The position numbers were made by a program, and so were the translations under genes. Shown piece by piece: positions 2 through 61,300 of a stretch of DNA of 64,000 bases (its first letter is position 1; the number at the start of each line of letters is the position of its first letter). The DNA comes from an uncultured Enterobacteriaceae bacterium (lineage in GTDB: Bacteria > Pseudomonadota > Gammaproteobacteria > Burkholderiales > SG8-39): NCBI GenBank assembly GCA_964576525.1, contig CAZNVH010000041.1, forward strand, positions 7,326 to 71,325, in the 5' to 3' direction. Below the pieces are notes generated by a model that was given only the letters and a program-made list of their open reading frames with translations, had not been told where the DNA came from and did no database searches.

Positions 2-5039
<5,038 letters not shown>

Positions 5040-5043
5040 TTCC

Positions 5044-5913
5044 ATGCCCGCCAAGCTGAGAAAAGCCGTTTTCCCGGTTGCCGGCCTCGGCAGCCGCTTC
5101 CTGCCGGTGACCAAGGCGAGCCCCAAGGAGATGCTGCCGATCGTCGACAAGCCGCTGATCCAGTACGCGGTGGAGGAGGCGGCGGCGGCGGGGATCACCG
5201 AGATGATCTTCGTCACCGGGCGCAACAAGCGGGCGATCGAGGACCACTTCGACAAGGCCTACGAGCTCGAAACCGAGCTCGAGCGCAAGAACAAGGCCGA
5301 GCTGCTCGAGATGGTGCGCTCGGTGCTGCCGGAAGGCGCGCGCTGCATCTACCTCCGCCAGGCCGAGCCGCTCGGCCTGGGGCACGCCGTGCTGTGCGCG
5401 CAGCCGGTGGTCGGCAACGATCCTTTCGCTGTGGTGCTGGCCGACGACCTGATCGACGCGCAGCCGCCGGCGATGTGCCGCATGGCCGAGCTGTTCGCCA
5501 AGGAGGGCTGCTCGCTGCTCGGCGTCGAGGAGGTGCCGCGTGACCAGACCCAGAGCTACGGCATCGTCACCGTCGAGGCCATGCAATCCGACGCCGGGCG
5601 CCTGCGCAGCATCGTGGAGAAGCCCCGACCCGCCGATGCACCCTCGAACCTCGGCGTGATCGGCCGCTACGTGCTGACGCCACGCATCTTCGACCTGCTG
5701 GCACGGCAGTCGCCAGGCGCCGGCGGCGAGATCCAGCTCACCGACGCGATCTCGGCGCTGCTCACCCACGAACGGGTCCTCGCGGTGCGGCTGCCCGGCC
5801 GGCGCTACGACTGCGGCACCAAGCTCGGCTATCTGCAGGCGACGCTCGAGTACGGGCTGCGCCATCCCGAGACCGGCGAGGCGTTCGCGCGCTACCTGAA
5901 AGCACGCAAGTGA
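5044..5913 (+). CDS. galU: UTP-glucose-1-phosphate uridylyltransferase
   Basis: [31 protein letters not shown]; [12 protein letters not shown]. Confidence 0.96.
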
Positions 5914-35197: not shown

Positions 35198-36132
35198 AGT
35201 TTCGCCCGGTCCGGGGCGAGCACCACGCCTTTCTCGCAGATGATGCCGGTGATCAGCTCGGCGGGCGTGACGTCGAACGCCGGATTGCGTACCTTGACGC
35301 CCTCGGGCGCCCAGCGCATGCCGCGGTAGCCGGTGACCTCGGCCGCCGGGCGCTCCTCGATCGGGATGTGCGTCCCGTCCGGGATCTTCGGATCGAAGCT
35401 CGACAGCGGCGCTGCGACATAGAACGGGATGCCGTGGCGCTTCGCCAGCACGGCGAGGGTATAGGTACCGATCTTGTTCGCGACGTCGCCGTTCGCGGCG
35501 ATGCGGTCGGCGCCGACCACGACCACGTCCACCTCGCCGCGGCTCATCAGGTGGCCGGCCATGCTGTCGGTGATCAGTGTGCACGGAATGCCTTCCTGCA
35601 CCATCTCGTAGGCGGTGAGCCGCGCGCCCTGCAGGTACGGCCGTGTTTCGCACGCGAGCACGGAAATGGATTTACTTTTTGAAGATCTAATAACTCCCAA
35701 AGCTGTTCCATACCCTGCCGTCGCCAGCGCGCCGGCGTTGCAATGGGTCATGACGCGCGCCTTGTTCGGAATCAACTCGGCGCCGAGCCTGCCCATGGCG
35801 TGATTCGCTGCAAGATCCTCGGCGAAGATCGCCTCGGCCTCGGCTTTCAGGTCCTTGGCTTTCTTCATCCGGTCCAGCGCCCAGAACAGGTTGACCGCCG
35901 TGGGGCGGCTCTTGGCCAGGACCTCGAAGGAGGAAGGAGATCCTTTGTCCAGGGCCACGCCGAAAGCCGCGGCGCAGCCGATCGCCGGCGCTCCGCGTAC
36001 CACCATGTCGCGGATCGCCTGCGCGACTTCCGCGGCGCCGCGGCAGGTCACGTAGACGGTCTGGTCGGGCAGCAGCCGCTGGTCGAGGAGATCCAGGCGG
36101 TCGCCGTACCAGCGGATCGGCTCGACCGTCAT
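35170..36132 (-). CDS. mtnA: S-methyl-5-thioribose-1-phosphate isomerase
   Basis: [68 protein letters not shown]. Confidence 0.94.
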
Positions 36133-38099
36133 TAGACGACGCGCTCGTTGCCGCCGTCGACCGGCACCTGGGCGGCGGTGGTCTTGGCGAAGAGCGGCCC
36201 GCACATTTCGGCGGCGAGCTCGGCGACGTCTTTCGACGCCACCTCGGTCTTGAGCAGGTTCTTCCTGCGGTACTGCTCGACGCTCAGGTTGTAGGCCTTG
36301 GCGCGCGCCGCGAGAAGCTCCTCGGTCCACAGCCCGGTGTCGTACACCGCGTCGGGGTGCAGCGAGTTGATGCGGATGCCGTCCTTGGCCCATTCCAGCG
36401 CGGCGACCCGCGCGACCTGGTTGAGCGCTGCTTTGGATGCCGAATAGGCGCCAGCCCCCGGCCCGGGCGCCGGCACGTTGCGCGAGCCGATCACCACGAT
36501 GCGCCCGCCGTGCGGCGCGAGCTTGAGCAGCGGATGACACAGCTGCAGCAGGCGCAGCGGCGCGTCCAGGTTGACGGCCATGGTCTGCCGCCAGGTGTCG
36601 AGGGCGATGTCCTGGACCGGCTGGGAGGAGGGGAAGATCCCGGCGTTGAGCACCAGCATGTCGAGCCCGCCGAAGCGCTGCACGGCCTTTTCCAGGGAAT
36701 CGTTGAGCGCGCCAGAATCCGTGAGATCGCAAGCCAGGCCGAGAAACGCGGGATCGGCACACTGCGTTTCTATGGCGGGATTGCGATCCAGGCCGACGAC
36801 CGCCGCTCCGCGCCGGAGAAACGCCTCCACGCACGCCTTGCCGATGCCCGAGGCGGCGCCGGTCACCAGGGCGACTTCGCCGGCGAACGCCGGCGGCGGG
36901 CCTGCTTTGCGCTTGGCCTGCTCGAGCTGCCAGTACTCGACGTCGAAGAGGTGCTTTTCGTCCACGGCGCGCCAGCCGCCGAGCGCCTCGGCGCGCAGGA
37001 TGACGTCGATGCTGTGGTCGTACAGCTCCTCGATGATCGTGGTCTCCCGCGCGCTGCGGCCGACGGCGGCGAGGCCGAGCTGCGGATCGAGCACGACCCG
37101 CGGCGCGGCGTCGAGCATTGCCTTCGGCTCGCCGGCGCCCTTGGCGTGGCGCTGGAAATACTGACGATAACTCTTGGCGTAGGCCGCCACGTCGCGCCCG
37201 AGCATCGGCGCCGGCTTGGTGAACAGCAGGTGATCCGGCGTCGCCGGGCCCTGCTGCGCGAGCTTCTGCAGGTCCGGGCGTTGGGCGAAGGCGAGGAATT
37301 TGTCGCTGCTACTGACCCGCATGAGCATCGGTACCCCGGCCTGCTCCGAAATCGCTCGCCTGAGGCTCGCGACGTCCTCGTTCTTCGGCGCCGTCGCCGG
37401 TTTCGGAGAAAACGCGAGCTGCCAAGCTTTTTTCTTCCCCAGGTACTCCTCGGCCATCGACACCAGCTCGATCATGCGCTCATAGGATTCGCGCGCCTCG
37501 GCGCCGAAGGAAAAGATGCCGTGCGACAGCAGCACCATGCCGACGGTGTGCTTTCCCGCCTGCTTCGGAAACTCGCGCGCGCAGCGCGCGGCGAGCTCGA
37601 AGCCTGCCATGACGTAGGGGATGACGACCACCCGCTCGCCATAGATCTCGCGGATGCGCTTCTCGCCCTGCGGCGCGTTGGAGATCGCCAGCATCGCGTC
37701 GGCGTGCGTGTGGTCGACGTAGCGGTGCGGCAGGATTGCGTGCAGGATGGTCTCGACCGAGGGCGAGGGCGCGCCGGCGCGCAGCACGTGCGTGTTCAGC
37801 TCGTTCAGCATCTGCGCGTCGGAGAGCGACGGCAGGCGCGCGAGCTTCTGCATGGCGGCGAGCGAGACCGGGGTGAAGCCGGCCGGCTCGATGGTCTCGA
37901 GGTCCGAGCCGCTGCCCTTGACGTAGAGCACCTCGCGCTCCTCGCCGAACAGGTCCTTCTCGCGCAGCTTGACCGAAGTGTTGCCGCCGCCATGCAAGAC
38001 GAGCGCTCGGTCGCGTCCGAGCAGGCGCGAGGTGTAGACGCGCGGCCCGAGCAGGCCGTCGAACTGCGCCGCTTCGGCGTCGCTCCAGCGACTTTTCAT
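36132..38099 (-). CDS. Bifunctional class II aldolase / short-chain dehydrogenase (RhaD-ADH/YuxG-like fusion)
   Basis: [15 protein letters not shown] and HG metal ligands; C-terminal [19 protein letters not shown]. Confidence 0.9.
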
Positions 38100-38122
38100 G
38101 CCGCGATTATACTTTTCGCGCC

Positions 38123-38539
38123 ATGCTGCGAATTGAGCTTCTGTCCTGGGAAGGCGCGCGCGTCCATGCGAGCCTGATCCGTTTCACCGTGTTCGTGGAA
38201 GAGCAGGGCGTGCCGCGCGAGATCGAGCTCGACGAGCAGGATGCGGTTTCGGTTCATGGGGTGGTGTTCGATCGGGAGAAGGCCGTGGCGACCGGCCGGC
38301 TGCTGCCCGACGGCCACATCGGCCGGATGGCGGTCCTCAAGGAGTGGCGCGGCCGCGGCGTGGGCGGGCTGATGCTGAAAAGCCTCATGCAGCGCGCCAA
38401 GGAGCGCGGCGACGCCGAGGTGGTCCTTTCGGCGCAAGTCCATGCCAGGGCCTTCTACCGGGCGCACGGCTTCGCGGAGGAGGGGGCCGAATACATCGAA
38501 GCGGGAATTCCGCATCAGACCATGAAGCACCGGTTCTAG
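38123..38539 (+). CDS. GNAT family N-acetyltransferase
   Basis: FVEEQGVP, IGRMAVLKEWRGRGVG, FYRAHGF, IPHQTM. Confidence 0.9.
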   Translation: MLRIELLSWEGARVHASLIRFTVFVEEQGVPREIELDEQDAVSVHGVVFDREKAVATGRLLPDGHIGRMAVLKEWRGRGVGGLMLKSLMQRAKERGDAEVVLSAQVHARAFYRAHGFAEEGAEYIEAGIPHQTMKHRF

Positions 38540-39195
38540 AACTCGTAGTGCAGGGTATCGCCCGGGGCACCGTCCGGGGCGAAAACGCGCTCGGCATAGC
38601 GGGTCCGCAGACCCTTGAGCAGCACGGTCGAGCAGCGCGTGCCGTAGGCCGGGCTGAGGATGCGCGCCGGCGCGAGCGCCCCGAACAGGGTCTCGACCGC
38701 GGGCGCTTGCTCGAGGATCTCCCGAAAGCGCGTCTTGGCGTCATCGACCTCTGGGGCATCGAGCAGCGTGTTGCCCAGGCCGTAGATCCCGGGCCCCAGC
38801 CGCCGCGGCGGACCGTCGCGGTTCGACATCGACCAGAGCTCCTCGCCGTCGCTCACCAGCAGATTGAAGCCGCTGTATTGGTCTGCCTTTATTTGCCGGA
38901 GATGCGCAGCCGGCTTTTCATTCCCATCCAGAAAGCTCGTCACCAGCGCCCCGCGCGACTCGGCGGCGCGCGCTTCATGGGCGCCGCGATAGTTGGTCAC
39001 CGCGGCAAATCTTCCCGAGCGGGAAATACCCATCCAGGTGCCGCCCGCCTCGAGGTCCCGCCCGGCGAGGATTTCCGGGTGGTCGGCCCAGAAGGCCGCC
39101 GGGGCGGCGGGACGGGCGTGGAACTCGTCGCGGTTCGCCGCGACGATCAACGGAAAATCAGGACGAGTGCGCCAGGCGAGAACGATCAGGCACAT
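38536..39195 (-). CDS. NRDE/TANGO2 family protein
   Basis: MCLI start, [29 protein letters not shown]. Confidence 0.92.
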
Positions 39196-40072
39196 TCCGG
39201 CTCTTCAGCTGCTGGTAAAGCTGGAACGCCTGCTGCGGCTTCTCCTTGCGGTGGACCACCGCGCCGACCGCCTGGATCATCGCCACCGGGTCGTCGGACT
39301 GGAAGATGTTGCGCCCCATGTCGACGCCGGCCGCGCCCTGGTCGAGCGCCTTGTACGCCATGGTCAGGGCGTCGAGCTCCGGGAGCTTCTTGCCGCCGGC
39401 GATCACGATCGGCACCGGGCAGCCGGCGACCACGCGCTCGAAGCCTTCCTCGATGAAGTAGCTCTTGACGTAGTGCGCGCCGAGCTCGGCGGCGATGCGC
39501 GTGGCGAGGCCGAAGTAGCGCTCGTCGCGCTTCATCTCGGCGCCGACGCCGGTGACGGCCATGGTCGGGATGCCGTAGCGGTTGCCGCTGTCGATGAGCT
39601 GCACCAGGTTCTTGATCGACTGGTGCTCGTATTCGGCGCCGATGTAGATCTGCGTGGTGATGGCGCAGGCGTTGAGGCGGATGGCGTCCTCGATGTCCAC
39701 CGCGATCAGCTCGCGCGACAGCTCGGTCAGGATGCTCTGGCCGCCCGAGCAGCGCAGGACCAGCGCGTTGGTGGAGGAGGGGGGGATCACCGAGCGCAGC
39801 GCGCCGCGGGTGCACATCAGCACGTCGGCGTAGGGGATGAGCGGCACGATGTTGAGGTCCATGCGCTCGAGGCCGGTGGTCGGCCCCTGGAAGTAGCCGT
39901 GGTCGAAGGCGAGCATCACGGTCTTGCCCGAGGCCGGGTTGAAGATGCGCGCCAGGCGGTTCTGCATTCCCCAGTCGAGCGCGCCGCCGCCCTTCACGAA
40001 GAAGGGATGGTTGACCTGCGGTACGCCGATGCCGAAGTCCTTGCCTTCTCGGATGTCGTCTTTATCGGCCAT
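39158..40072 (-). CDS. lsrF: LsrF-type thiolase (class I DhnA aldolase fold)
   Basis: [57 protein letters not shown]. Confidence 0.88.
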
Positions 40073-40088
40073 AATTTCCAACCATACC

Positions 40089-40370
40089 ATGTACGCCATC
40101 GTTTGTTTCGACCGCCCGGACTCGGCGGCGCTGCGCGACAGCCACCGCGCCGCCCATCAGGAATTTCTGAAAGCGAATGCGGAAAAAGTGGTGTTCGGCG
40201 GCCCGCTGAAGGACAGCCCTGAAGGGCCGAGCACCGGGGCGCTGATCGTGGTCGATTGCGCGACGCGCCAGGAGGCCGAGGCCTTCATCGGCGCCGACCC
40301 GTTCTACCGCAACGGCGTCTACGAGAACGTGGCGATCCGCGCCTTCAGGAAGGTGTTTCCGCAGAAATGA
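40089..40370 (+). CDS. YciI family protein
   Basis: C.DRP...LR...RAAH, GGPL, DPFY..GVY. Confidence 0.85.
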
Positions 40371-46958: not shown

Positions 46959-48620
<1,662 letters not shown>

Positions 48621-48630
48621 GTCAGGCCCG

Positions 48631-48636
48631 ATTATA
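48631..48636 (-). promoter_or_regulatory. -10 element (TATAAT) for tRNA Gly-Cys-Leu operon
   Basis: Perfect TATAAT 10 nt upstream of tRNA-Gly 5' end, adjacent to pgsA stop. Confidence 0.6.
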
Positions 48637-48638
48637 GG

Positions 48639-49214
48639 TCAACCGGGGGTCGCCGCGTGCGGCAGCGCCTTGCGCAGGTAGTAGAGCATCGAGATCACGG
48701 TGAGCACTGCCGCGATGTTGATCAGCACGGTGCCGAGCCACTGGCAATCGATCAGCCCGAACAGCCAGTCGTCGTACAAAAGGAGAGGGATTGCGATCAT
48801 CTGGCCGACCGTCTTCAGTTTGCCGATGAACGCGACCGCGACACTCCTCGACTGGCCTACTTTAGCCATCCATTCGCGCAACGCGGAGATGGCAATCTCG
48901 CGGCCGATGATGATTAAAGCCACTGCGGTTTCGACCCTGCCTTCCTTCAGTAGCACGATAAGCGCACCGACGACGATGAGCTTGTCGGCCACGGGATCGA
49001 GAAAGGCGCCGAAAGCCGACATCTGGTTGAGCTTGCGCGCGAGGTAGCCGTCGAGCCAGTCGGTAACCGCGGCGAAGATGAACACTGCAGTCGCGGTGAT
49101 GTTCTTGCTCGAAGGAGAGAGCCATTCGTCGGGCAGGTAGAAGATTCCGACGATCAGCGGGATCAGGATGATCCGCGACAGCGTGACCAGGTTAGGGACG
49201 TTGAGCGGGATCAT
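48639..49214 (-). CDS. pgsA: CDP-diacylglycerol-glycerol-3-phosphate 3-phosphatidyltransferase
   Basis: PNLVTLSRI, TDWLDGYLAR, GAFLDPVADK, GREI. Confidence 0.96.
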   Translation of the reverse strand: MIPLNVPNLVTLSRIILIPLIVGIFYLPDEWLSPSSKNITATAVFIFAAVTDWLDGYLARKLNQMSAFGAFLDPVADKLIVVGALIVLLKEGRVETAVALIIIGREIAISALREWMAKVGQSRSVAVAFIGKLKTVGQMIAIPLLLYDDWLFGLIDCQWLGTVLINIAAVLTVISMLYYLRKALPHAATPG

Positions 49215-50989
49215 GCGCTGGCGGACTCGTGCAGGTGGCGGTAGATGCGCTCGGCGAGCGGCCGGCTGATGCCCTCGACCTTGGCGATGTCGTCGATCGC
49301 CGCGGCCTGGACGCCGCGCAGGCCGCCGAAATGCTCGATCAACGCCTGGCGGCGCTTGGCGCCGATGCCGGGGATCTCGTTGAGCATCGAGGTGGTGCGC
49401 GCCTTGCCGCGCCGCGCGCGGTGGCCGAGCACCGCGAAGCGGTGCGCCTCGTCGCGGATCGCCTGGATCAGGTGCAGCCCGGGGTGCGAGGGCGGGAGCT
49501 GCAGCGCCTGGGCCCCGCCTTCCAGGATCAGCTCCTCCTCGCCCGGCTTGCGCCCGGGCCCCTTGGCGACGCCGACCACGCTCACTTGGTGTAAACCCAA
49601 ATCATGTAGAACTGCACAAGCAACCCCTACTTGCCCCTTGCCGCCGTCGATCAGGATCAGGTCGGGAATCCGGCCCGCCTCGGCGCTGACCCGCTCGTAG
49701 CGGCGCGCGAGCGCCTGGCGCATCGCAGCGTAGTCGTCGCCGGGCGTGATATCCCGGATGTTGAAGCGGCGGTATTCGGCCTTCTGCATCTGCTGGCGAT
49801 CGTAGACCACACAGGATGCTACCGTTGCCTCGCCCATCGTGTGGCTTATGTCGAAGCATTCCACGCGCTGCGCACCCTCCGGCAGGCCCAGCGCCTCGCG
49901 CAACGCGAGCAGCCGACCCTCCTGCGTCGCCCGGTCGCGCACCCGCTGCGCGATCGCCAGCAGCGCGTTCTTGCGGGCCATGTCCAGCCAGACCCGCCGT
50001 TCGCCGTGCGACGGGTTCACCACGTTCGCGTTCTCGAGCTCCACGGGCTCGCTCGTGACCACAAGCGCGGGCAGCGGCTGCTCCAGGTAATGCTGCCCGA
50101 GGAAGGCGGAGACGACCTCGGCTTCGGCGGCGCCCTCGGCGTTCGCCGGAAAGAAGCTGCGGTCGCCGACGTGGCGGCCGGTGCGGATCATGACCAGGTT
50201 GACGCAGGCGATGCCCCCCTCGACTACGCAGGCGACCACGTCGGCGTCGACGCCGTGGTTCGATTCGACGTACTGGCGCACCTGAATGCGGGACAGCGCG
50301 CGCACCTGATCGCGATAGGCGGCAGCCTCCTCGTAGTGCCGCGCGTCGGACGCGGATTTCATTCGCTCGCCCAGGTTCCGGATCACGTCATCCTCGCGGC
50401 CCTCGAGGAACAGCGCCGCGTTGGCCACGTCCTCGGCGTACGGCTGCGCCGCGATCTGGCCGGTGCACGGCGCGCTGCAGCGCCGGATCTGGAACAGCAG
50501 GCAGGGCCGCGAGCGGTGCTCGAACACCGTGTCCTCGCAGGTGCGCAGGCGGAACACCCGCTGCAGCAACTGGATGCTCTCGCGCACCGCGTGGGCATGC
50601 GGGAACGGCCCGAAGTAACGGTGGCGCCGGTCCTTGGCGCCACGGTGGAAGCCCAGGCGCGGAAACGGGTGCCCGGTCAGCGTCAGGTAAGGGTAGGACT
50701 TGTCGTCGCGGAACAGGATGTTGTAGCGCGGCGCGAGGCTCTTGATGAGGTTGTTCTCGAGCAGCAGCGCCTCGTCCTCGGAGCGCGTCGCGGTCACCTC
50801 CACCGCGGCCACCTGCGACAGCATCATGCGGATGCGCGGGCTCTCGACGGTCTTGTGGAAGTACGACGCGACGCGCTTCTTCAGGTCCCGCGCCTTGCCG
50901 ACGTACAACGGCTCCCCGGCCCCGCCGAGCATGCGGTACACCCCGGGCAGATTCGGCAGCCCGGCGACGAAAGCCTTGGCATCGAACAA
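49211..50989 (-). CDS. uvrC: Excinuclease ABC subunit C
   Basis: GIY-YIG PGVYRM..LYVGKA, ECFDISH, DGGKGQ, RDEAHRFA, HhH; TTG start inferred. Confidence 0.95.
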   Translation of the reverse strand: MFDAKAFVAGLPNLPGVYRMLGGAGEPLYVGKARDLKKRVASYFHKTVESPRIRMMLSQVAAVEVTATRSEDEALLLENNLIKSLAPRYNILFRDDKSYPYLTLTGHPFPRLGFHRGAKDRRHRYFGPFPHAHAVRESIQLLQRVFRLRTCEDTVFEHRSRPCLLFQIRRCSAPCTGQIAAQPYAEDVANAALFLEGREDDVIRNLGERMKSASDARHYEEAAAYRDQVRALSRIQVRQYVESNHGVDADVVACVVEGGIACVNLVMIRTGRHVGDRSFFPANAEGAAEAEVVSAFLGQHYLEQPLPALVVTSEPVELENANVVNPSHGERRVWLDMARKNALLAIAQRVRDRATQEGRLLALREALGLPEGAQRVECFDISHTMGEATVASCVVYDRQQMQKAEYRRFNIRDITPGDDYAAMRQALARRYERVSAEAGRIPDLILIDGGKGQVGVACAVLHDLGLHQVSVVGVAKGPGRKPGEEELILEGGAQALQLPPSHPGLHLIQAIRDEAHRFAVLGHRARRGKARTTSMLNEIPGIGAKRRQALIEHFGGLRGVQAAAIDDIAKVEGISRPLAERIYRHLHESASA

Positions 50990-51047
50990 GAATTCATTAT
51001 AAATCGTGTAAAATTCGCGCCCTTTTCGCAGAGCGTCATTCACTGTC

Positions 51048-51614
51048 ATGGCCAAGGTCGAAGCGGTAGGGATCCGCCCCGGGAATTTGATCGAGTGGGA
51101 CAAGCGCGTCTGGCGCGTGCTCAAGTCCTACCACGTGCACGTCGGCGGCCGCGGTGGCGCGTTCATGCAGGTCGAGATGAAGGACATCGAGGCCGGCACC
51201 AAGACCAACCAGCGCTTCCGCACCGAGGACAAGGTCGAGCGCGCCTACATGGATGGGCGCGACATGCAGTACCTGTACCAGGACGGCGACAGCTACGTGT
51301 TCATGGACAAGGAGAACTACGAGCAGCTGTCGCTGCCGGCGGACTTCCTCGAGGGTCAGGCGGGCTACCTGCTGCCCAACACCGAGGTGCAGATCAGCTT
51401 CTACAACGGGCGCCCGATCGGCATCGAGCTGCCGCCGTCGGTGGTGCTGACCGTCGAAGACACCGAGCCCGGCATCAAGAATTCCACCGCCACCAATTCC
51501 TTCAAGCCAGCGAAGATGGAGACCGGAATCACGGTGCAGGTGCCGCCCTTCATCAACAAGGGCGAGAAGATCAAGATCGACACCGCCGAAGGCACTTACA
51601 TGGAGCGCGCGTAG
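51048..51614 (+). CDS. efp: Elongation factor P, atypical tip loop (HVGGRGGA)
   Basis: QYLYQDGDSYVFMD, IELP..V.L.V..TEPG, KPAK.ETG..VQVPPFI..GEKIKIDT..G.Y.ERA. Confidence 0.93.
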   Translation: MAKVEAVGIRPGNLIEWDKRVWRVLKSYHVHVGGRGGAFMQVEMKDIEAGTKTNQRFRTEDKVERAYMDGRDMQYLYQDGDSYVFMDKENYEQLSLPADFLEGQAGYLLPNTEVQISFYNGRPIGIELPPSVVLTVEDTEPGIKNSTATNSFKPAKMETGITVQVPPFINKGEKIKIDTAEGTYMERA

Positions 51615-52633
51615 CCGAGCGCGCCGAGCGCCTCCTGCGCTTCGCGGTAGGCGACGCTTTTTCGGAGATCTCGCCCGCCCTGCTTCCGCATCCGGTCCAG
51701 GCGCCCGGCGTTCCCAAGGGAAACGTCCTTTAGGGAATCCAGCAGCGCGTCGAGCCCCTTGGGGTCGTTGCATAACAACACCATGTCGCAACCAGCGGCC
51801 AGCGCGGCGCGGGCGCGCTCGGGCGGGCCGCCGGCGGTGCTCGCCCCCGCCATCGACAAGTCGTCGCTGAAGATCAGCCCGTCGAAGCCCAGCTTGCCGC
51901 GCAGCACTTCCTGCAACCAGTATTTCGAGTAGCCTGCGGGCTCGGCGTCCGCCTGCGGGTAGACCACATGCGCCGGCATCACGGCCGCGAGGCCGGCCTC
52001 GATCGCTTTCCGGTAGGGCAGGACGTCCTTTTTCAGGACATCGGCAAGCGCTCGCTCATCTCGCGGTACGGCAACGTGGGAGTCCGCGGAAGCGAATCCG
52101 TGGCCCGGAAAATGTTTGCCGACCGCAGCCATCCCGGCGTCGGCGAAGCCCTGCACAATGGCGCCGGCGAGGGCGCCGACGGCGTTGGGGTCGTAATGCA
52201 GCGCGCGGTCGCCGATCACGCTGCTCGCGCCGTAGTCGAGATCGAGCACCGGCGCGAAGCTGAAGTCGAGGCCGTGCGCGCCGAGCTCGGCGCCGATGAC
52301 GTACGCGGCGGCGCGCGCCGCCTCGCGGGCCAGGTCCTGGTCGCGGTCCCACAGGCGGCCCAGCTCGCGCATCGCCGGGATCGCGGTGAAGCCCTCGCGG
52401 AAGCGCTGTACCCGGCCGCCCTCGTGGTCCACGCCCACCGGCAGCGCGGGCTCGCGCAGCCGCTCGATATCCTCGGCCAGCAGGCGCAGCTGCTCGGGCG
52501 CTTCATAATTCCTGGAGAAAAGAATGACCGCGCCGGTCGCCGGGTGGCGCAGGCGCTCGCGGTCGTCGTCGCTCAGCACCGGCCCCACGACGTCTGCGAC
52601 CACAGGTCCCGGCGGCAGCCTTACTTTTCGCAC
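51596..52633 (-). CDS. nagZ: Beta-N-acetylhexosaminidase
   Basis: VILFSRN, VDHEGGRVQRF, KHFPGHG, IFSDDLSM. Confidence 0.95.
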   Translation of the reverse strand: MRKVRLPPGPVVADVVGPVLSDDDRERLRHPATGAVILFSRNYEAPEQLRLLAEDIERLREPALPVGVDHEGGRVQRFREGFTAIPAMRELGRLWDRDQDLAREAARAAAYVIGAELGAHGLDFSFAPVLDLDYGASSVIGDRALHYDPNAVGALAGAIVQGFADAGMAAVGKHFPGHGFASADSHVAVPRDERALADVLKKDVLPYRKAIEAGLAAVMPAHVVYPQADAEPAGYSKYWLQEVLRGKLGFDGLIFSDDLSMAGASTAGGPPERARAALAAGCDMVLLCNDPKGLDALLDSLKDVSLGNAGRLDRMRKQGGRDLRKSVAYREAQEALGALGYARSM

Positions 52634-53004
52634 TCGAGGATCACGGTGGCGACCGCGACGCCGCGCTCGTCGGCGAGGGAAAGATGCGCTTTCGACACGC
52701 CTCTTTCCTCAAGGAGCTGTTTCAAGGGTTGTGAAAACTCGAGAACCGGCTTACCCGAGGCCAAGTTCCTGACCCATACGCCGTGCCAGTTGGCCGGCGC
52801 CTTGATGCCGGTGCCCAACGCTTTCGTGAAGGCTTCCTTGGCGGCAAAACGCTTGGCGAGGTAGGCGGCAGGCTGCCGGTGCCCCTGGAACCGCTTCAGC
52901 TCGGGATCGCAGAGGATGCGGCGCGCGAAGCGCTCGCCGAAGCGCCCGAGCGCCTTTTCGATCCTGCCGATCTCGACCACATCGGTGCCGACGCCGTAGA
53001 TCAC
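52621..53004 (-). CDS. acpS: Holo-ACP synthase
   Basis: GVGTDVVEI, AKRFAAKEAF.KALGTG, SLAD. Confidence 0.95.
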   Translation of the reverse strand: MIYGVGTDVVEIGRIEKALGRFGERFARRILCDPELKRFQGHRQPAAYLAKRFAAKEAFTKALGTGIKAPANWHGVWVRNLASGKPVLEFSQPLKQLLEERGVSKAHLSLADERGVAVATVILECEK

Positions 53005-53747
53005 CGCGCGGCCTGCACCATCAGGCTCTTCATCTCGCGCACCGCCTCGCGCATGCCGATGAACAGGGCGCGCGACACGATGGCGTGGCCGATATGCAGC
53101 TCGCGCACCCCCGGCAGCCGCGCCACCGGCTCGACGTTGAAGTAGTTGAGCGCGTGGCCGGCGTTGAAGCGCATGCCGAGCGAGCGAATGACTTCTCCCG
53201 CGTTCTGAATTTTTCTCAATTCTGAAATAACGGCAGGGCTTTCCGCGTCGCGGCCCTTCGAATGGAAGGCGTGGGCGTACGGGCCGGTGTGGACCTCGCA
53301 GACCGTCGCGCCGATGCGCTTCGCCGCCTCGACCTGGCGCAACTCGGCGTCGATGAAGACGGAGACGACGATTCCCGCGTCGGCAAGGCGCTTCACGATA
53401 GAAGACAATTGTTTTTCCTGACCTGCAACATCCAGGCCGCCCTCGGTCGTCACCTCGTGCCGCCCCTCCGGCACCAGCATCGCCATCTCGGGCTTGAGGT
53501 GGCTGGCGATGCCGACCATCTCGTCGGTCGCCGCCATCTCGAGATTGAGCTTGATGTGCGTCAGCTCGCGCAGCCGGCGCACGTCCTGGTCCTGGATGTG
53601 GCGCCGATCCTCGCGCAAGTGCACCGTGATGCCGCCGGCGCCGCCGAGGTGCGCTTCGACCGCCGCCCAGACCGGGTCGGGCTCGTAGGTGCGCCGCGCC
53701 TGCCGCACGGTGGCGACATGGTCGACGTTGACACCCAGTTCGATCAT
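53001..53747 (-). CDS. pdxJ: Pyridoxine 5'-phosphate synthase
   Basis: LGVNVDHVATVRQAR, TVHLREDRRHIQ, TTEGGLDV, NAGH, ELHIGH. Confidence 0.97.
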   Translation of the reverse strand: MIELGVNVDHVATVRQARRTYEPDPVWAAVEAHLGGAGGITVHLREDRRHIQDQDVRRLRELTHIKLNLEMAATDEMVGIASHLKPEMAMLVPEGRHEVTTEGGLDVAGQEKQLSSIVKRLADAGIVVSVFIDAELRQVEAAKRIGATVCEVHTGPYAHAFHSKGRDAESPAVISELRKIQNAGEVIRSLGMRFNAGHALNYFNVEPVARLPGVRELHIGHAIVSRALFIGMREAVREMKSLMVQAAR

Positions 53748-53757
53748 GGTTGCCCGA

Positions 53758-54474
53758 TCACAGCTCGTTCAGCTCCAGCAGCACCGCGCGCGTGTGCAGC
53801 ACCTGGCCGTGCAGCCGCTGGCCGATGAGAGAGCGCAGCAGCAGGCGCGCCTCGTCGCGCGTCTCCGGGCGGCCGTAGCGGTCGGCGGCGACGTCGAGCA
53901 GCGTCTGGCCGCTGACGCTGGGCTGGCTGGAAGCGGCGCTGTTCAGGGGCATGGGTCCGCGTTCGGGCTCGTAGACGTAGCGCCGCGCCGGATCGATTGC
54001 CGCGCCGGTCGCCGCGTCCTGCTCGAGCAGCGGAGCATACCCGAGCTCGGCGAGCAGGCGCTTTTCGAAGGCGCGCAGCACCGCGGCGTGGTCCGGGTCC
54101 CGGGACAGCGCCGCGAGCGACTCGCCGTAGATATCGAACAGGGCTTCGTGCGGGTCGTCGCGCGGCAGGAGCCGCAGCAGCAGCTCGTTGAGGTAAAAGC
54201 CGCACATCAGGGCGCGCCCGCCGAGCGGTGGCGAGGCGCCCGACCACTCGCCGGAAATCAGGTTGCGCAGCTCGGCCGCGGCGCCCCAGCTCAGGCGCAG
54301 CGGGTGAAAGGACAGCAGCACGCCGCGCATCGCCGAGCGCGGACGGCGCGCGCCGCGCGCCAGCAGCGCGATGCGGCCGAAGCGCCGCGTGAGCGCCTCG
54401 ACGATCAGGCTGGTCTCCTTGTAGGGATACGTATGCAGCACGTAGCCCGGCTCGTGCTCGGTCCGGCTTCTCAT
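53758..54474 (-). CDS. recO: DNA repair protein RecO
   Basis: GYVLHTYPYKETSLI, CGFYLNELL, LRAFEKRLL.ELGY, LHTR. Confidence 0.94.
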   Translation of the reverse strand: MRSRTEHEPGYVLHTYPYKETSLIVEALTRRFGRIALLARGARRPRSAMRGVLLSFHPLRLSWGAAAELRNLISGEWSGASPPLGGRALMCGFYLNELLLRLLPRDDPHEALFDIYGESLAALSRDPDHAAVLRAFEKRLLAELGYAPLLEQDAATGAAIDPARRYVYEPERGPMPLNSAASSQPSVSGQTLLDVAADRYGRPETRDEARLLLRSLIGQRLHGQVLHTRAVLLELNEL

Positions 54475-55352
54475 TCGTAGCCGAGCTGGCGCAGCACGCG
54501 CGCGTCGTCGGTCCATGACTTGCGCACCTTCACCCACACCGCGAGGAACACCTTGCCGCCGAAGAGCTTCTCCATGTCCTGACGCGCCGCCGTGGCCATC
54601 TGCTTCATCTTCTGGCCGCCGGCGCCCAGGACCATGGCCTTCTGGCTCGCGCGCTCGACCAGGATGGTGGCCTCGATGCGCCGCAGCCGCCCTTCTTCCT
54701 TGAAGCTCTCGATCAGCACCTCGCAGCGGTACGGCAGCTCCTGGCCCATCCCGATGAACAGCTTCTCGCGCAGCAGCTCCGCGGCGAAGAAGCGCTCGTC
54801 GCGGTCGGTGAGCTGGTCGGGCGGGTACGCCGGCGGCGCCTCGGGCAGCGCGTCGCGCATTACGCGCAGCAGCTCCAGGATGTTGCGGCCGGTCTTCGCG
54901 CTCACCGGGACGATGGCCTCGAACGCGCGAGTCTTCGACAGCCGGTCGAGGAACGGGATCAGCTGCTGGGCCTTCATCAGGTCGATCTTGTTCACGACCG
55001 CGATCACGTGCTGCGCGACGGGAATGCGCGCCAGCACCGCCTCGTCCTCGGGGCCGAAGCGCAAGGCCTCCACCACGAACAGGGCCACGTCGGCGTCGCG
55101 CGCCGCCTCGGTGGCGCGCTTGTTGAGCCTGCGGTGCAGCGTGCTCTTCGCCTGCAGCTGCTGCCCTGGCGCGTCGACGAACACGTACTGGCAGTCCTCG
55201 CGCGTCAGGATGCCGGTGATCAGGTGGCGCGTGGTCTGGGGCTTGGCCGAGACGATCGACAGCTTCTCGCCCACCAGGCGGTTCAGCAGGCTCGACTTGC
55301 CGGTGTTGGGGCGCCCGGCAAAGCCGATGGTGCCGCAGCGATGCGCGCTCAA
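54471..55352 (-). CDS. era: GTPase Era
   Basis: TTG overlaps rnc TGA; GRPNTGKS, KPQTTR, DAPG, NKID, KH domain. Confidence 0.95.
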   Translation of the reverse strand: MSAHRCGTIGFAGRPNTGKSSLLNRLVGEKLSIVSAKPQTTRHLITGILTREDCQYVFVDAPGQQLQAKSTLHRRLNKRATEAARDADVALFVVEALRFGPEDEAVLARIPVAQHVIAVVNKIDLMKAQQLIPFLDRLSKTRAFEAIVPVSAKTGRNILELLRVMRDALPEAPPAYPPDQLTDRDERFFAAELLREKLFIGMGQELPYRCEVLIESFKEEGRLRRIEATILVERASQKAMVLGAGGQKMKQMATAARQDMEKLFGGKVFLAVWVKVRKSWTDDARVLRQLGYE

Positions 55353-56005
55353 CGCTCGAGTCTTTCCAGCATCTTCTGCGCAGCTTCCTGCTGCGCGCGC
55401 TGCAGCGAGCTGCCGTTTCCCCGGGTGTGGAGGTCGAGCTCCGGCAGCACGCATTCCACCTCGAAGGAGAGCCGGTGCGCCTCGCCGAGGGTCGCGACCA
55501 CGCGGTACTCGGGCAGGCCCTTGCGTCGCGCGTGCATCATCTCCTGCAGGCGGCTCTTCGCGTCCTTGGCGCTGTTCGCGGGGTCAAGCCGCCCGAGCAG
55601 CGGGCCGAAAGCGCGTAGCGCCGCTTCGCGCGCCGCGTCATAGCCCCCGTCCAGGAAGATCGCCCCGAACAGCGCCTCGACGCCGTCGGCCAGCACCGAG
55701 GGGGTGACCGTCTGGCGGGCGGCCAGCCGCAGGTGCGCAGCCAGGTCCAGGCTCGCGGCGACCTCGACCAGGGCCTCCTCGCGCACCAGGCTCTCGCGCA
55801 AGCGCGACAGCCGGCCCTCCGCAAGCGCCGGGAAGCGGGCGTACAGCTCGTCGGCGATCGCGCAGCCGAGGACGCCGTCGCCCAGGAATTCCAGCCGTTC
55901 GTTGTTGTCCGCGCCCCAGCTCGCGTGCGTCAGCGCCTGCTCGAGGAGCCGCGCTTCGGCGAAGCGGTAGCCGAGGCCTTCCTCGAGAGCCGCGGGTCGA
56001 GGCAA
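55349..56005 (-). CDS. rnc: Ribonuclease III
   Basis: ALTHAS, NNERLEFLGDGVLG, dsRBD KDAKSRLQE. Confidence 0.96.
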   Translation of the reverse strand: MPRPAALEEGLGYRFAEARLLEQALTHASWGADNNERLEFLGDGVLGCAIADELYARFPALAEGRLSRLRESLVREEALVEVAASLDLAAHLRLAARQTVTPSVLADGVEALFGAIFLDGGYDAAREAALRAFGPLLGRLDPANSAKDAKSRLQEMMHARRKGLPEYRVVATLGEAHRLSFEVECVLPELDLHTRGNGSSLQRAQQEAAQKMLERLER

Positions 56006-58997: not shown

Positions 58998-59099
58998 CTC
59001 TAACCTGCTATTTTACCGTAGGAATTACCGCTAATGACTATAAACGTCGGCTAAGCCTTCAGCTTTCATATTGACTGTCCGGACGGTATCGCCGTCACA

Positions 59100-59759
59100 T
59101 TAGAGCCCTTTGGATCGGTTCGTTCGCCATTCACTCCGACAGTCCTCATGATTTGAGAATGCGTATTGGAAAAGTAGTGCTCCCATCGCTCCTTTGCCGA
59201 GATCAGACACACCTACGGAAAGCCGAACCGTGCGCAGCTTGTCCGGCAACCGATGTCGATGTTCCTCTACCCACATCGCAACAAGCCTTCCATTCTGTTC
59301 CATGACCGCCCTGTACCATTCTTTCGGAGGTATGGGCTGTCGCACATCTCTATTCGGTTCAAACCCGATCTGCGGTTTGCCATATTTCTGCGAAAGGACT
59401 CGTACGGTTTCCTCAAATTCATGCTCGATGGAAGACGCAAAGAACAGCTTTCCTTCTGCGAGGATAAAGCAGAGCCCGGATTCCTTCGAAAAGAAGAGTG
59501 TTAGCGATTGAATACTCTCGTTGATGATCGGCGGTTGTTGGACCGTCAACGCGTCCTTACTGTCGCGGACACCCTTAGAGATCTTTTTCGCCGCCTCCCG
59601 AGTCATCCCCTGGTCGTATCCGAACGGTCCTGCCACTGATATCGCGGAGTACCCAAGCAAAGCAGTTGTAGCCACGGTCACGAATACATGAATGAGTAAA
59701 CGATGCTCTTTGGGGGGCGGCCCGACGCGCTGCTTACGCAGCTTCCCTCTCAGTTTCAC
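59100..59759 (-). CDS. Hypothetical exported protein (low-GC island)
   Basis: GTG overlaps upstream TGA; hydrophobic signal-like stretch ending SVA-GPFG; 219 aa. Confidence 0.6.
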   Translation of the reverse strand: MKLRGKLRKQRVGPPPKEHRLLIHVFVTVATTALLGYSAISVAGPFGYDQGMTREAAKKISKGVRDSKDALTVQQPPIINESIQSLTLFFSKESGLCFILAEGKLFFASSIEHEFEETVRVLSQKYGKPQIGFEPNRDVRQPIPPKEWYRAVMEQNGRLVAMWVEEHRHRLPDKLRTVRLSVGVSDLGKGAMGALLFQYAFSNHEDCRSEWRTNRSKGL

Positions 59760-59959
59760 TTGTGCTTCCAGTAATTGATTGTGTAAGCCAGCGTAGTGGC
59801 CGCTACGGAAGCCAGCATGATTACTGAGACAGCCACCGAGAACCAATACAGCGTGGATAGCCCAAAGTGCTCCGCAGCACCCAAGAAACCCAACCCGACG
59901 ACTAAACCCCACAGGTTCTGATTCAGATGGATCTTGAAGTGCTCGTCAAGGCTTGCCAT
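59756..59959 (-). CDS. Small two-TM hypothetical protein (67 aa)
   Basis: AGGAG SD before ATG; two hydrophobic segments. Confidence 0.6.
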   Translation of the reverse strand: MASLDEHFKIHLNQNLWGLVVGLGFLGAAEHFGLSTLYWFSVAVSVIMLASVAATTLAYTINYWKHK

Positions 59960-60038
59960 TTCGACTCCTAAACGGATGCATAACTAAACACGTGTCGGAC
60001 CATTGTTGTTCTGCTGATTGTCGACGCCGGTAGTGGCG

Positions 60039-60611
60039 TTACGTGATGTACTCCATGTCGTACTGAAGCTTCTTCCCACGACAACGTGGACAGAACAACG
60101 CTCGGCTCCTTGTGAGCGTTCCTCCGCATTTGCAGCCCCCGGCCACCACATCGGGTGACGAATTCGCGAGCGCGATAAACGTCCCGCAAGATTCGCACTG
60201 ATATCCAGTGGTACTCGTTTCGCCGTGAACAAAGGAGACGATTTCAGCAGAGTAGCCACATTCCAAGCAGGAAATTGTCCCGGCACCTCCTATGAATTGA
60301 AAGAAGACCTCCGATCGTCTCGCGTCTTCGCCGTCTGTACTGCTACGCCGTGTTCGGAGTTCTTCTCGTACTGCCCCCGGGAGAAAAATCGGCCAAAGCA
60401 AAATAACCCCTAGCGATAGCAACGTTCCGAACAACAGGAGTCTTGATTTTGAAAGTGCCGGACGGCCGTAATAGGCGTTTAGGAGATTCAATCCACGAGC
60501 ATCCGCCGCCGCTTCGGACACTTTCCTACGAAGTGGCCCTGCAGCAAGCAAAGCCAGCCCCACGAGAACATAGAGTGCTAGGCCAGCCAATAGTGCCCCG
60601 CCGATATACAT
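60039..60611 (-). CDS. Hypothetical membrane protein with Cys-rich double zinc-ribbon C-terminus
   Basis: Two TM helices, then CLEC, CESC, CKC, CPRC. Confidence 0.65.
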   Translation of the reverse strand: MYIGGALLAGLALYVLVGLALLAAGPLRRKVSEAAADARGLNLLNAYYGRPALSKSRLLLFGTLLSLGVILLWPIFLPGAVREELRTRRSSTDGEDARRSEVFFQFIGGAGTISCLECGYSAEIVSFVHGETSTTGYQCESCGTFIALANSSPDVVAGGCKCGGTLTRSRALFCPRCRGKKLQYDMEYIT

Positions 60612-61028
60612 TCAATGCATGCTTTGCGGCGTTAGATCAAGACTTAGTAGCGCTCTCGCATTTCTCGAACGAAGCACACGAGCCCCTACTCATGGAGTTT
60701 CGCCTAGTCGAAAAGTTTGCTTCGACGTCCTAGCTCAAACTTTCCACCGCTTGCCGCAGGGAATCCTACGCCGGTTGCCTCATAGACCTTACTGATTAAG
60801 TTTCGAAGCTGCTTTCTGGCAAATTCCTCTGCCAACTGAGGTGCTAACACCGACGCATTGTGCTCAACTTCAAAAGAAGCGGCTGTTGATTTGGCGGCGA
60901 ACTGAATAGCCAAAGATGCAATAGCATGCTCCCGCCTACTGCACCTGCTCTTCCGGCCCATTAACTTCCCCCGAACTTGTTGGAGTTTTGGTATTAAAGC
61001 AACCGGAGTGTTTGACCGCGAGGCGTTT

Positions 61029-61068
61029 AAAAAAGTTGCACCCGTAGTCTTCTAAGAAAAGGTGCGAC
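61029..61068 (-). terminator. Terminator-like hairpin after glutaredoxin gene
   Basis: GTCGCACC..GGTGCAAC (7/8 bp) then TTTTTT on minus strand; long 18-nt loop. Confidence 0.35.
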
Positions 61069-61069
61069 G

Positions 61070-61300
61070 TTAGCCAATTCCCGTCGCAATCTTTAACGCT
61101 GATTTGTCGAGATGATAGTGGCAAATCTCGTTCCCTTGCGCGTCGACAAGGACTGGAACCAGATGTCCATATTCTTTCTTAAGCGCAAGATCCGAATCGA
61201 CGTCGATCTCCTCGAAATCGACCCCGAGCGAGCGCAGCGCCTGCGCCATCTCCTCGCAGAGGTGGCAGCGGCTGCGCCCGTACAGCTTAACCTTTGTCAG
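61070..61300 (-). CDS. Glutaredoxin-like protein (DUF836 type), absent from ORF track; CTG start
   Basis: Manual translation LTKVKLYGRSRCHLCEEMAQAL..EEIDVDSD..YGHLVPVL..EICHYHLD; usual neighbour of mucD. Confidence 0.85.
   Translation of the reverse strand: MTKVKLYGRSRCHLCEEMAQALRSLGVDFEEIDVDSDLALKKEYGHLVPVLVDAQGNEICHYHLDKSALKIATGIG

Follow-up and report, generated by a model that had tools for sequence, protein, structure and literature searches.

An elongation factor P with an extended, proline-free arginine loop in the earP-efp slot of uncultured betaproteobacteria

We analyzed a 64,000-nucleotide stretch of DNA (hereafter the window; positions 7,326 to 71,325 of contig CAZNVH010000041.1, assembly GCA_964576525.1) from an uncultured bacterium of the Burkholderiales and found that its efp gene, located between uvrC and nagZ, encodes an elongation factor P (EF-P) of an unusual subtype. 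Its tip loop, HVGGRGGA, carries an arginine (R35), is one residue longer than the canonical loop and contains no proline. In related betaproteobacteria the same slot holds earP and an efp gene of the EarP type with the KSGRN loop, and the in situ xenologous displacement of this pair by a single foreign efp gene is well supported. Displacement by a distinct EF-P subtype had been proposed from the letters of the DNA (the sequence-only reading), and the proposal now has behind it the occupation of the same slot in relatives, nested trees of the neighboring genes, a foreign EF-P lineage and the absence of earP nearby. We regard it as fairly probable that the protein is the resident housekeeping EF-P of its clade, which displaced earP-efp and acts through an unmodified R35 borne on a slightly longer hairpin.

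The window protein is an elongation factor P in the sense of TIGR00038/PRK00529. It begins with MAKVEAV, a start common to all relatives, and is matched by all three Pfam domains of the family, EFP_N (PF08207), EFP (PF01132) and Elong-fact-P_C (PF09285), as well as by the NCBIfam models TIGR00038 (efp equivalog; 236.2 bits, cut-off 185.8) and NF001810 (233.7 bits, cut-off 161). A model built by AlphaFold2 (AF2) from an 82-sequence alignment reached a mean predicted local distance difference test score (pLDDT) of 88.9, and its best fold matches in the PDB were EF-Ps without exception (TM 0.85–0.89). In domain III, the proteins of the clade possess K-N-S/A-T (KNST in the window) in place of the usual K-G-D-T, a difference that may point to changed contacts toward the E site.

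The tip of domain I reads Y28-H-V-H31-V32-G-G-R35-G-G-A38-F39 and lacks proline. The canonical β3-Ω-β4 loop consists of seven residues (Volkwein et al., 2019, PMC6544042); the window EF-P exceeds this length, with one inserted residue in its alignment to each canonical EF-P. The insertion was recovered by HMMER against EF-Ps of the PDB (hvhvggrggaf vs hvkp-gkgsaf and, for Thermus, qhqkl-grggakv), by MAFFT against 150 representatives of a 50%-identity protein library, and by MAFFT against verified references, the latter comprising Escherichia coli EF-P and EfpL from NC_000913, Pseudomonas aeruginosa EF-P checked against PDB 3OYY, and EarP-type EF-Ps from metagenomic loci. Examples from these alignments are HVHVGGRGGAF vs HVK-PGKGGAF, FVK-PGKGQAF and FNK-SGRNAAV. 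R35 aligns with K34 of E. coli and R32 of P. aeruginosa, so that the tip is basic; the extra residue sits N-terminal to it, and the proline at −2 of lysine-type loops is a glycine here. The sequence-only reading had described the loop (H31-VGGRGG-A38) as one residue longer and free of proline, and the open reading frame (ORF) together with the agreeing HMMER and MAFFT alignments bears this description out. By DSSP, the AF2 hairpin of the window EF-P is made of strands 20–31 and 38–46 around loop 32–37 (27 residues, span 20–46), and that of a canonical control, P0136, of segments 20–30, 31–37 and 38–45 (26 residues, span 20–45), i.e., the two models differ by one extra β-ladder step and a tighter glycine turn. 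Since loop confidence is moderate, we read no more into this comparison than agreement with a slightly longer hairpin.

The loop does not vary in any of the 83 loci or the ~240 database proteins examined. HVHVGGRGGA was found in 119 of the 120 best nr90 matches, the remaining one having N for H29, and in all 119 further matches to a 59%-identical relative. It is identical in 83/83 loci (the window and 82 related loci) and is kept in representatives at 59–66% identity. Its codons vary synonymously across species (GGC/GGG/GGT/GGA, CGC/CGT, GTC/GTG/GTT), and the window gene shows low pairwise dN/dS (the ratio of nonsynonymous to synonymous substitution rates) of 0.08–0.39 against clade orthologs; together, these features indicate a constrained functional gene and not a decaying copy. 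Inside the clade, dN of domain I is two to three times below that of domains II–III, residues 18–63 are nearly invariant, and EF-P is more conserved (78–94% identity) than most of its essential neighbors (50–81% for UvrC, NagZ, Era and RecO).

To describe the slot in relatives we relied on an EarP-type set of 80 loci, returned as metagenome contigs encoding K-S-G-R-N-A-A-V-V-K and searched with the window proteins. Eight of the 80 (L101, L124, L139, L153, L105, L092, L109 and L125) have efp in the same slot, in the arrangement (uvrC-)earP-efp(-nagZ-acpS-pdxJ-recO-era-rnc), with earP as the divergent partner of uvrC. One of them, L101, carries uvrC on the minus strand, a 383-aa ORF and efp on the plus strand, nagZ on the minus strand, and then acpS, pdxJ, recO, era and rnc; its 383-aa ORF encodes EarP (PF10093, 505 bits). 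The nagZ side of the slot is visible in L124, L139, L153, L105 and L092, and the uvrC/pgsA side in L109 and L125. The earP-efp pair that the sequence-only reading had placed at the uvrC/nagZ locus of Burkholderiales is thus present in eight related metagenomic loci of betaproteobacteria. The EF-Ps encoded in these slots share 53–70% identity with P. aeruginosa EF-P and 30–36% with the window EF-P, and no locus holding both EF-P types was found among 162 loci. In nearly all of L001–L080 the gene order is pgsA-uvrC<>efp><nagZ-acpS-pdxJ-recO-era-rnc. The space between uvrC and efp, put at 58 bp by the sequence-only reading and said there to leave no place for earP, has this length when counted from the inferred TTG start of uvrC, and amounts to 41–120 bp in 66 related loci, which gives no room for earP (~1.15 kb).

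The direction of the exchange was read from neighbor-joining trees of AcpS, PdxJ, RecO, Era and RNase III rooted with the syntenic E. coli block. The clade with the GGRGG loop was monophyletic in 100% of the neighbor-gene replicates. The EarP-type loci did not come out as one group in a single replicate (0/100 to 0/200) of the concatenates or of the separate era, recO and pdxJ trees. With the clade nested among EarP-type lineages, the most parsimonious solution is an ancestor that had earP-efp in the slot and a later replacement in the clade. As a side observation, PdxJ of L101 and L124 is only 53–55% identical to PdxJ of the window, which is below the value for E. coli PdxJ (57%), the corresponding values for L153 and L105 being 80–81%; pdxJ may have a transfer history of its own, and it drives part of the disagreement between neighbor trees.

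In the EF-P tree (92 sequences, 100 replicates), the GGRGG type was monophyletic in 92/100 replicates. The alphaproteobacterial-like (alpha-like) core belonged to its sister group in 64/100, and an EarP-type sequence of any kind appeared there in only 3/100. EarP-type EF-Ps of the syntenic loci clustered tightly together (100/100), with an internal branching that in part follows that of the neighboring genes. Identity to the window EF-P is 39–47% for the alpha-like proteins, 37% for E. coli EF-P, 31% for EfpL and 30–35% for the EarP type. The phylogeny against EF-P and EfpL clades, by which the atypical status claimed at the outset was to be judged, thus sets the GGRGG type apart as a separate lineage, near neither the EarP type nor EfpL. 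The efp reading frame has a GC content at third codon positions (GC3) of 0.91, and its kilobase has 64.7% GC vs 67.4% for the window, i.e., it is compositionally native. We found no relatives closer than ~50% identity that are devoid of the loop, and both observations point to an old transfer. No donor with a uvrC-linked efp was found; the alpha-like sister group has the organization Band_7-efp-inositol monophosphatase, with no uvrC.

What we report on EarP, EpmA/EpmB and further efp copies has a local scope, namely the window and the related loci. Among the ~58 window ORFs scanned there were no EarP, EpmA or EpmB domains, nor any radical-SAM/LAM or PoxA-like domains. A tblastn search with the L101 EarP detected no earP in 1.23 Mb, made up of the window and 82 GGRGG-type loci with ~10 kb per side (best E = 0.97); as a positive control, the same search located EarP beside efp in 64/80 EarP-type loci, down to 29% identity. 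The known modifiers of EF-P encountered in this analysis adjoin efp, as earP does in these 64 loci and epmB in E. coli, and no conserved candidate modifier gene was seen next to efp in 83 loci. Two window genes were considered and rejected. An NTP-transferase (positions 4858–5910) is GalU according to NCBIfam, not RmlA, and an aldolase/short-chain dehydrogenase fusion (36132–38183), for which we saw no connection with the modification of EF-P, scored above the cut-off of NF006196 (1015 bits) and below those of the rhamnulose-1-phosphate aldolase (RhaD) models. The latter, a 683-aa bifunctional protein encoded on the minus strand, is adjoined by TANGO2-family and DeoC-like aldolase genes (38536–40156, minus strand), and the genes at 36132–40156 look like a sugar-catabolic cluster unrelated to EF-P rhamnosylation.

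The closest relatives of the GGRGG type are the alpha-like lysine-type EF-Ps with the loop H(V/T)(K/Q)PGKGGA(F/Y), i.e., the P0136 family, labeled 'Caulobacteraceae bacterium' in records of metagenome-assembled genomes (MAGs). They share with the window EF-P the stretch GGA(F/Y)(M/A)QVE(M/L)K after the tip and a YMERA-like C-terminus, but differ in having a lysine tip, proline at −2, a seven-residue loop, and an inositol-monophosphatase gene after efp. The EarP type, in turn, resembles the window EF-P in its arginine tip, the lack of proline at −2, the betaproteobacterial host and the uvrC/nagZ slot. However, it forms a separate clade, its KSGRNAA loop is one residue shorter and has S30 and N33, and earP is adjacent in 64/80 loci. 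Its EF-P reportedly carries rhamnosyl-Arg32 (Lassak et al., 2015). We rejected membership of the window protein in this type on account of the missing co-located earP (PF10093; none in the window and 82 related loci), the HVGGRGGA loop and the separate clade (sister in 3/100 only). Likewise rejected was membership in the EpmAB type (arginine tip, no P-G-K-G, no epmA/epmB in the window ORFs scanned) and in the PGKGP type, as the loop is V-G-G-R-G-G-A and not the palindromic P-G-K-G-P. The actinobacterial PGKGP type is nonetheless similar in that a presumably modification-free mode of working is written into the loop sequence; its EF-P is said to be unmodified (Pinheiro et al., 2020). There, a lysine loop is stiffened by two prolines, whereas in the window protein the arginine is flanked by four glycines, the opposite in rigidity.

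EfpL/YeiP (Sieber et al., 2024; PDB 8S8U) is comparable in its unmodified-arginine logic and its extended loop, and its domain III has likewise lost the GDT motif. Its R33 stays unmodified on a loop that, longer by two residues, extends to the CCA end of the P-site tRNA (bioRxiv 10.1101/2024.04.15.589488), and a strictly conserved proline stands three residues before the arginine (bioRxiv 10.1101/2024.04.15.589488; PMC12856214). In contrast to this +2 loop with proline (SPTARGAAT), the window loop is +1, proline-less and has V32 at −3. Genomes with an EfpL-type factor always encode a primary EF-P as well (PMC11388002), so that EfpL is a second copy throughout, whereas the window EF-P sits in the primary efp slot. 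Assignment to EfpL was rejected based on scores below the cut-offs of TIGR02178 (141.3 bits, cut-off 264.05) and NF003392 (158.9 bits, cut-off 216), loop anatomy, the 31% identity and the tree.

Arginine-type EF-Ps without a known modifier have recently been recognized as a heterogeneous class of 206 proteins from 14 phyla, and those EarP-less members that were active in E. coli worked unmodified and were not rhamnosylated by EarP (Brewer et al., BMC Biol 2026, PMC12931083). The class includes a betaproteobacterial member, A0A0F7KHW6 of Nitrosomonas communis Nm2, which works unmodified in E. coli (PMC12931083). Of the marks by which this class is defined (PMC12931083), the window EF-P has the arginine tip and is not an EfpL, and EarP is absent from the window and 82 related loci. 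The arginine-type EF-Ps of Deinococcus radiodurans, Thermus thermophilus and N. communis share with it the arginine tip, the lack of proline at −2 and, as far as the locus shows, the lack of EarP, and T. thermophilus (K-L-G-R-G-G-A) additionally the G-R-G-G-A tip; yet, the Thermus and Deinococcus loops are of canonical length and the window loop is +1 (HV-GGRGGA vs KL-GRGGA). The N. communis protein is likened to the window EF-P by class description. As GRGGA tips are scattered over the EF-P tree, the tip common to Thermus and the window is convergent. In the literature, including a full-text search for GGRGG with EF-P, we did not find the +1 proline-less HVGGRGGA loop described, nor its spread over an uncultured betaproteobacterial radiation or its placement in the ancestral earP-efp slot.

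We propose the following course of events. The ancestor would have carried earP and a KSGRN-loop efp between uvrC and nagZ. A single efp from elsewhere in the EF-P family would then have taken the place of this two-gene module, with slot and orientation unchanged; the closest known relatives of the newcomer are the alpha-like lysine-type EF-Ps. EF-P is expected to bind between the P and E sites, with its hairpin directed toward the CCA end of the P-site peptidyl-tRNA. There, the guanidinium of an unmodified R35 on the longer hairpin may stabilize the CCA end without rhamnosylation, and the extra residue and the four glycines could make the hairpin longer and give R35 freedom to adjust. By analogy with EfpL, with the arginine-type EF-P of Nitrosomonas, and with the GRGGA-tipped ones of Thermus and Deinococcus, R35 presumably works unmodified; the extra loop residue would compensate for the absent modification, and the window EF-P would be the sole EF-P of these bacteria. 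More tentatively, and with greater doubt than for the reading as a whole, the eight-residue proline-free GGRGG loop might constitute a third independent modification-free solution, besides PGKGP stiffening and the +2 loop of EfpL, one that let the radiation discard EarP by an in-place swap.

Several points weigh against the picture of a resident EF-P with an unmodified arginine. Coverage of ~10 kb per side in the relatives and of the 64-kb window leaves room for a second efp, for an earP at a distance or for a different modifying enzyme, and in N. communis, the one cultured betaproteobacterium reported with such a protein, the EarP-less arginine-type EF-P co-occurs with another EF-P (PMC12931083). 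A flexible glycine-rich loop runs counter to the stiffening logic of the unmodified PGKGP type, and AF2 confidence in the loop block is moderate (mean pLDDT 82). As for the displacement, the trees are neighbor-joining trees with a distant outgroup, and acpS and rnc alone, both short and ambiguous, recover EarP-type monophyly in 66/100 and 34/100 replicates. The genes also differ on the closest EarP-type lineage, PdxJ pointing to L153, L105 and L139 and the others to L101 and L124; this disagreement means that the sister lineage is not settled, while the nesting among EarP-type lineages is. Finally, no donor closer than ~50% identity was found, and no mechanism accounts for the arrival of a foreign gene in precisely the former slot and orientation.

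The same gene history could have ended with an R35 that is modified after all, by an unlinked enzyme (another glycosyltransferase, a methyltransferase, etc.) to which the glycine-rich extended loop is adapted. The invariance of all eight loop residues would fit a constraint by two partners, the ribosome and the enzyme, and flexible glycine flanks would expose R35; moreover, around half of bacterial EF-Ps fall outside the known modification classes, and from genome data an unmodified protein is indistinguishable from one modified by an undescribed pathway (PMC11388002, PMC12931083). Nevertheless, such a modifier would break with the habit of the known ones encountered here, which adjoin efp (earP in most EarP-type loci, epmB in E. 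coli), since none of the 83 loci has a conserved candidate gene beside efp and the inserts between efp and nagZ are sporadic; the tested EarP-less arginine-type EF-Ps active in E. coli also worked unmodified (PMC12931083). We judge this reading unlikely, though it deserves serious consideration, and likewise hold it less likely that the invariant loop serves as the target recognized by an arginine-modifying enzyme not yet described. Still less probable, in our opinion, is that the window protein is an auxiliary, EfpL-like second EF-P with a specialized motif spectrum, with a canonical primary EF-P encoded elsewhere in the genome. EfpL indeed offers a precedent with its arginine tip, extended loop and a domain III devoid of the GDT motif (KNST vs KGAS), and its constant company of a primary EF-P (PMC11388002), as does N. 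communis with its pair of an EarP-less arginine-type EF-P and another EF-P (PMC12931083). But the gene occupies the slot of the only visible efp of its relatives, from which earP is gone, its product passes the efp equivalog threshold but neither of the two for EfpL, lies away from EfpL in the tree and is more conserved than most essential neighbors, and a conserved motif upstream of it, resembling a −10 element with a GC-rich discriminator, would suit a growth-rate-controlled translation gene.

It is also conceivable that nothing was displaced, and that efp of the clade is the original betaproteobacterial gene, replaced elsewhere by the EarP module, possibly several times. An origin of the EarP type inside the Betaproteobacteria is assumed (PMC11388002), which requires an earlier state without EarP; the uvrC<>efp adjacency extends to the more divergent L082 lineage, acpS and rnc taken alone do not reject EarP-type monophyly, and no close donor has been identified. 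Against this, the concatenated, era, recO and pdxJ trees never give EarP-type monophyly, so that ancestral retention needs at least two independent invasions of the same slot. The slot EarP-type EF-Ps form one tight clade that partly mirrors the neighboring genes, as vertical descent predicts, and in a sister lineage that shares the loop, efp has quite different neighbors (gshA-efp-pstSCAB). We consider ancestral retention very improbable, and the displacement of earP-efp by the GGRGG-type efp the better account of the locus.

The subtype is widespread. A species-level genome collection contained at least 515 confirmed relatives (the 80 best were analyzed further), and all matches listed were uncultured 'Burkholderiales/Betaproteobacteria bacterium' MAGs. 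The window is nearly identical to contigs of a freshwater-sediment metagenome, and the clade is most likely a large uncultured betaproteobacterial lineage of soil and sediment. L082 (66% identity) has the same loop and the uvrC<>efp arrangement, but a risA/risS-like pair downstream. In a further lineage (B; P0123, P0410–P0413; 59% identity) the same loop is encoded by efp in the gshA-efp-pstSCAB context; there (L081 6563–10570; L205 4614–8570; L207 1041–4989), efp always follows genes for a CBS protein, a YbaK-like protein (tRNA_edit), DUF971, a UbiE-like methyltransferase and GshA, and precedes pstSCAB-phoU, the presence of a prolyl-tRNA-related trans-editing gene near efp being a curious coincidence. 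In one MAG, MFD02840.bin.2.96, the whole pgsA…rnc locus occurs on three contigs (L001, L002 and L003), with EF-Ps 93–94% identical to that of the window, which suggests uncollapsed strain variants in a long-read bin. Contigs identical to efp were found in sediment runs labeled as RNA-seq, which is weak evidence that efp is expressed, contig depth being a poor measure of expression. In the sediment runs, contig depth shows a 10- to 30-fold peak over the loop-encoding part of efp (51132–51241), probably as co-occurring strains collapse onto this conserved stretch.

Table 1. Features of the efp locus (window coordinates)
Feature	Position	Strand	Evidence
efp, 'HVGGRGGA' subtype, three-domain EF-P, 188 aa	51048..51614	+	ORF, Pfam, NCBIfam, AF2
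Codons of the β3-Ω-β4 tip V32-G-G-R35-G-G-A38; R35 = CGC at 51150-51152	51141..51161	+	alignments, AF2/DSSP
uvrC, divergent from efp; start inferred as TTG at 50989 (MFDAKAF...)	49211..50989	-	TIGR00194 552 bits; synteny
Divergent uvrC/efp intergenic region, 58 bp	50990..51047	.	sequence
nagZ (beta-N-acetylhexosaminidase), convergent with efp, 19-bp overlap with the efp stop	51596..52633	-	NF003740 441 bits; synteny
acpS, pdxJ, recO, era, rnc; flanking block, species-tree markers	52621..56005	-	NCBIfam equivalogs
Terminator-like hairpin and T-run, 24 nt past the efp stop, within the 3' coding part of nagZ	51638..51663	+	consensus scan

Within the spacer between uvrC and efp, GTGTAAAATTCGCGCCCTTTT (51006–51026, ~22–42 nt upstream of the efp ATG) is kept across the clade, at the same position in L004–L075, and is retained even in loci with otherwise unrelated spacers. 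It is probably a −10 element (TAAAAT) followed by a GC-rich discriminator for efp, the latter possibly of the kind typical for stringently controlled promoters; since a consensus sigma-70 scan of the uvrC/efp intergenic region gave no formal promoter match, we only infer this promoter role. The terminator-like hairpin of Table 1 has weak support, the scan having returned 3 sites in the region vs 1.0 expected. Between efp and nagZ, ~17 loci carry inserts that are not conserved, encoding an EamA transporter (~8 loci), an ABC substrate-binding protein, a LysR regulator, RecQ or an aldehyde dehydrogenase. This junction is a recurrent insertion point (L009, L010, L013, L019, L024, L025, L027–L029, L032, L033, L037, L042, L066 and L077).

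By Pfam, the ~58 ORFs of the window are core genes, e.g., smc, glnD, map, rpsB, tsf, frr, cdsA, rseP and bamA, and further lpxD, fabZ, lpxA, ppsA, smpB, guaB, guaA, mltG, tmk, lepB and lepA. On the minus strand, pgsA is followed by genes for tRNA-Gly(GCC), tRNA-Cys(GCA) and tRNA-Leu(TAA) (48279–49214), in the same order as pgsA-glyW-cysT-leuZ of E. coli, which we take to be a deeply conserved arrangement. A low-GC island of ~2.3 kb (59000–61290; 51–53% GC vs 67%) lies between lepA and a DegP/MucD-like protease gene and looks like a foreign insertion; its ORFs (e.g., 59100–59945, minus strand, 281 aa) had no Pfam match.

EF-P is near-universal and its activation is a live question, for which this locus represents a natural experiment: at one and the same slot, sister lineages possess either earP with a KSGRN-efp or a single HVGGRGGA-efp. 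Hundreds of related genomes can thus be compared to see what a lineage loses and gains by giving up a modification enzyme, and how this affects the polyproline proteome. That a core translation factor should be exchanged precisely where it stood before is unusual and so far has no mechanistic explanation. If A0A0F7KHW6 of N. communis belongs to the same subtype, unmodified activity has already been demonstrated (PMC12931083). Our hypothesis is that one extra residue and glycine flanks may make an unmodified arginine competent, which would bear on the engineering of modification-free EF-P for the expression of polyproline proteins and the incorporation of non-canonical amino acids.

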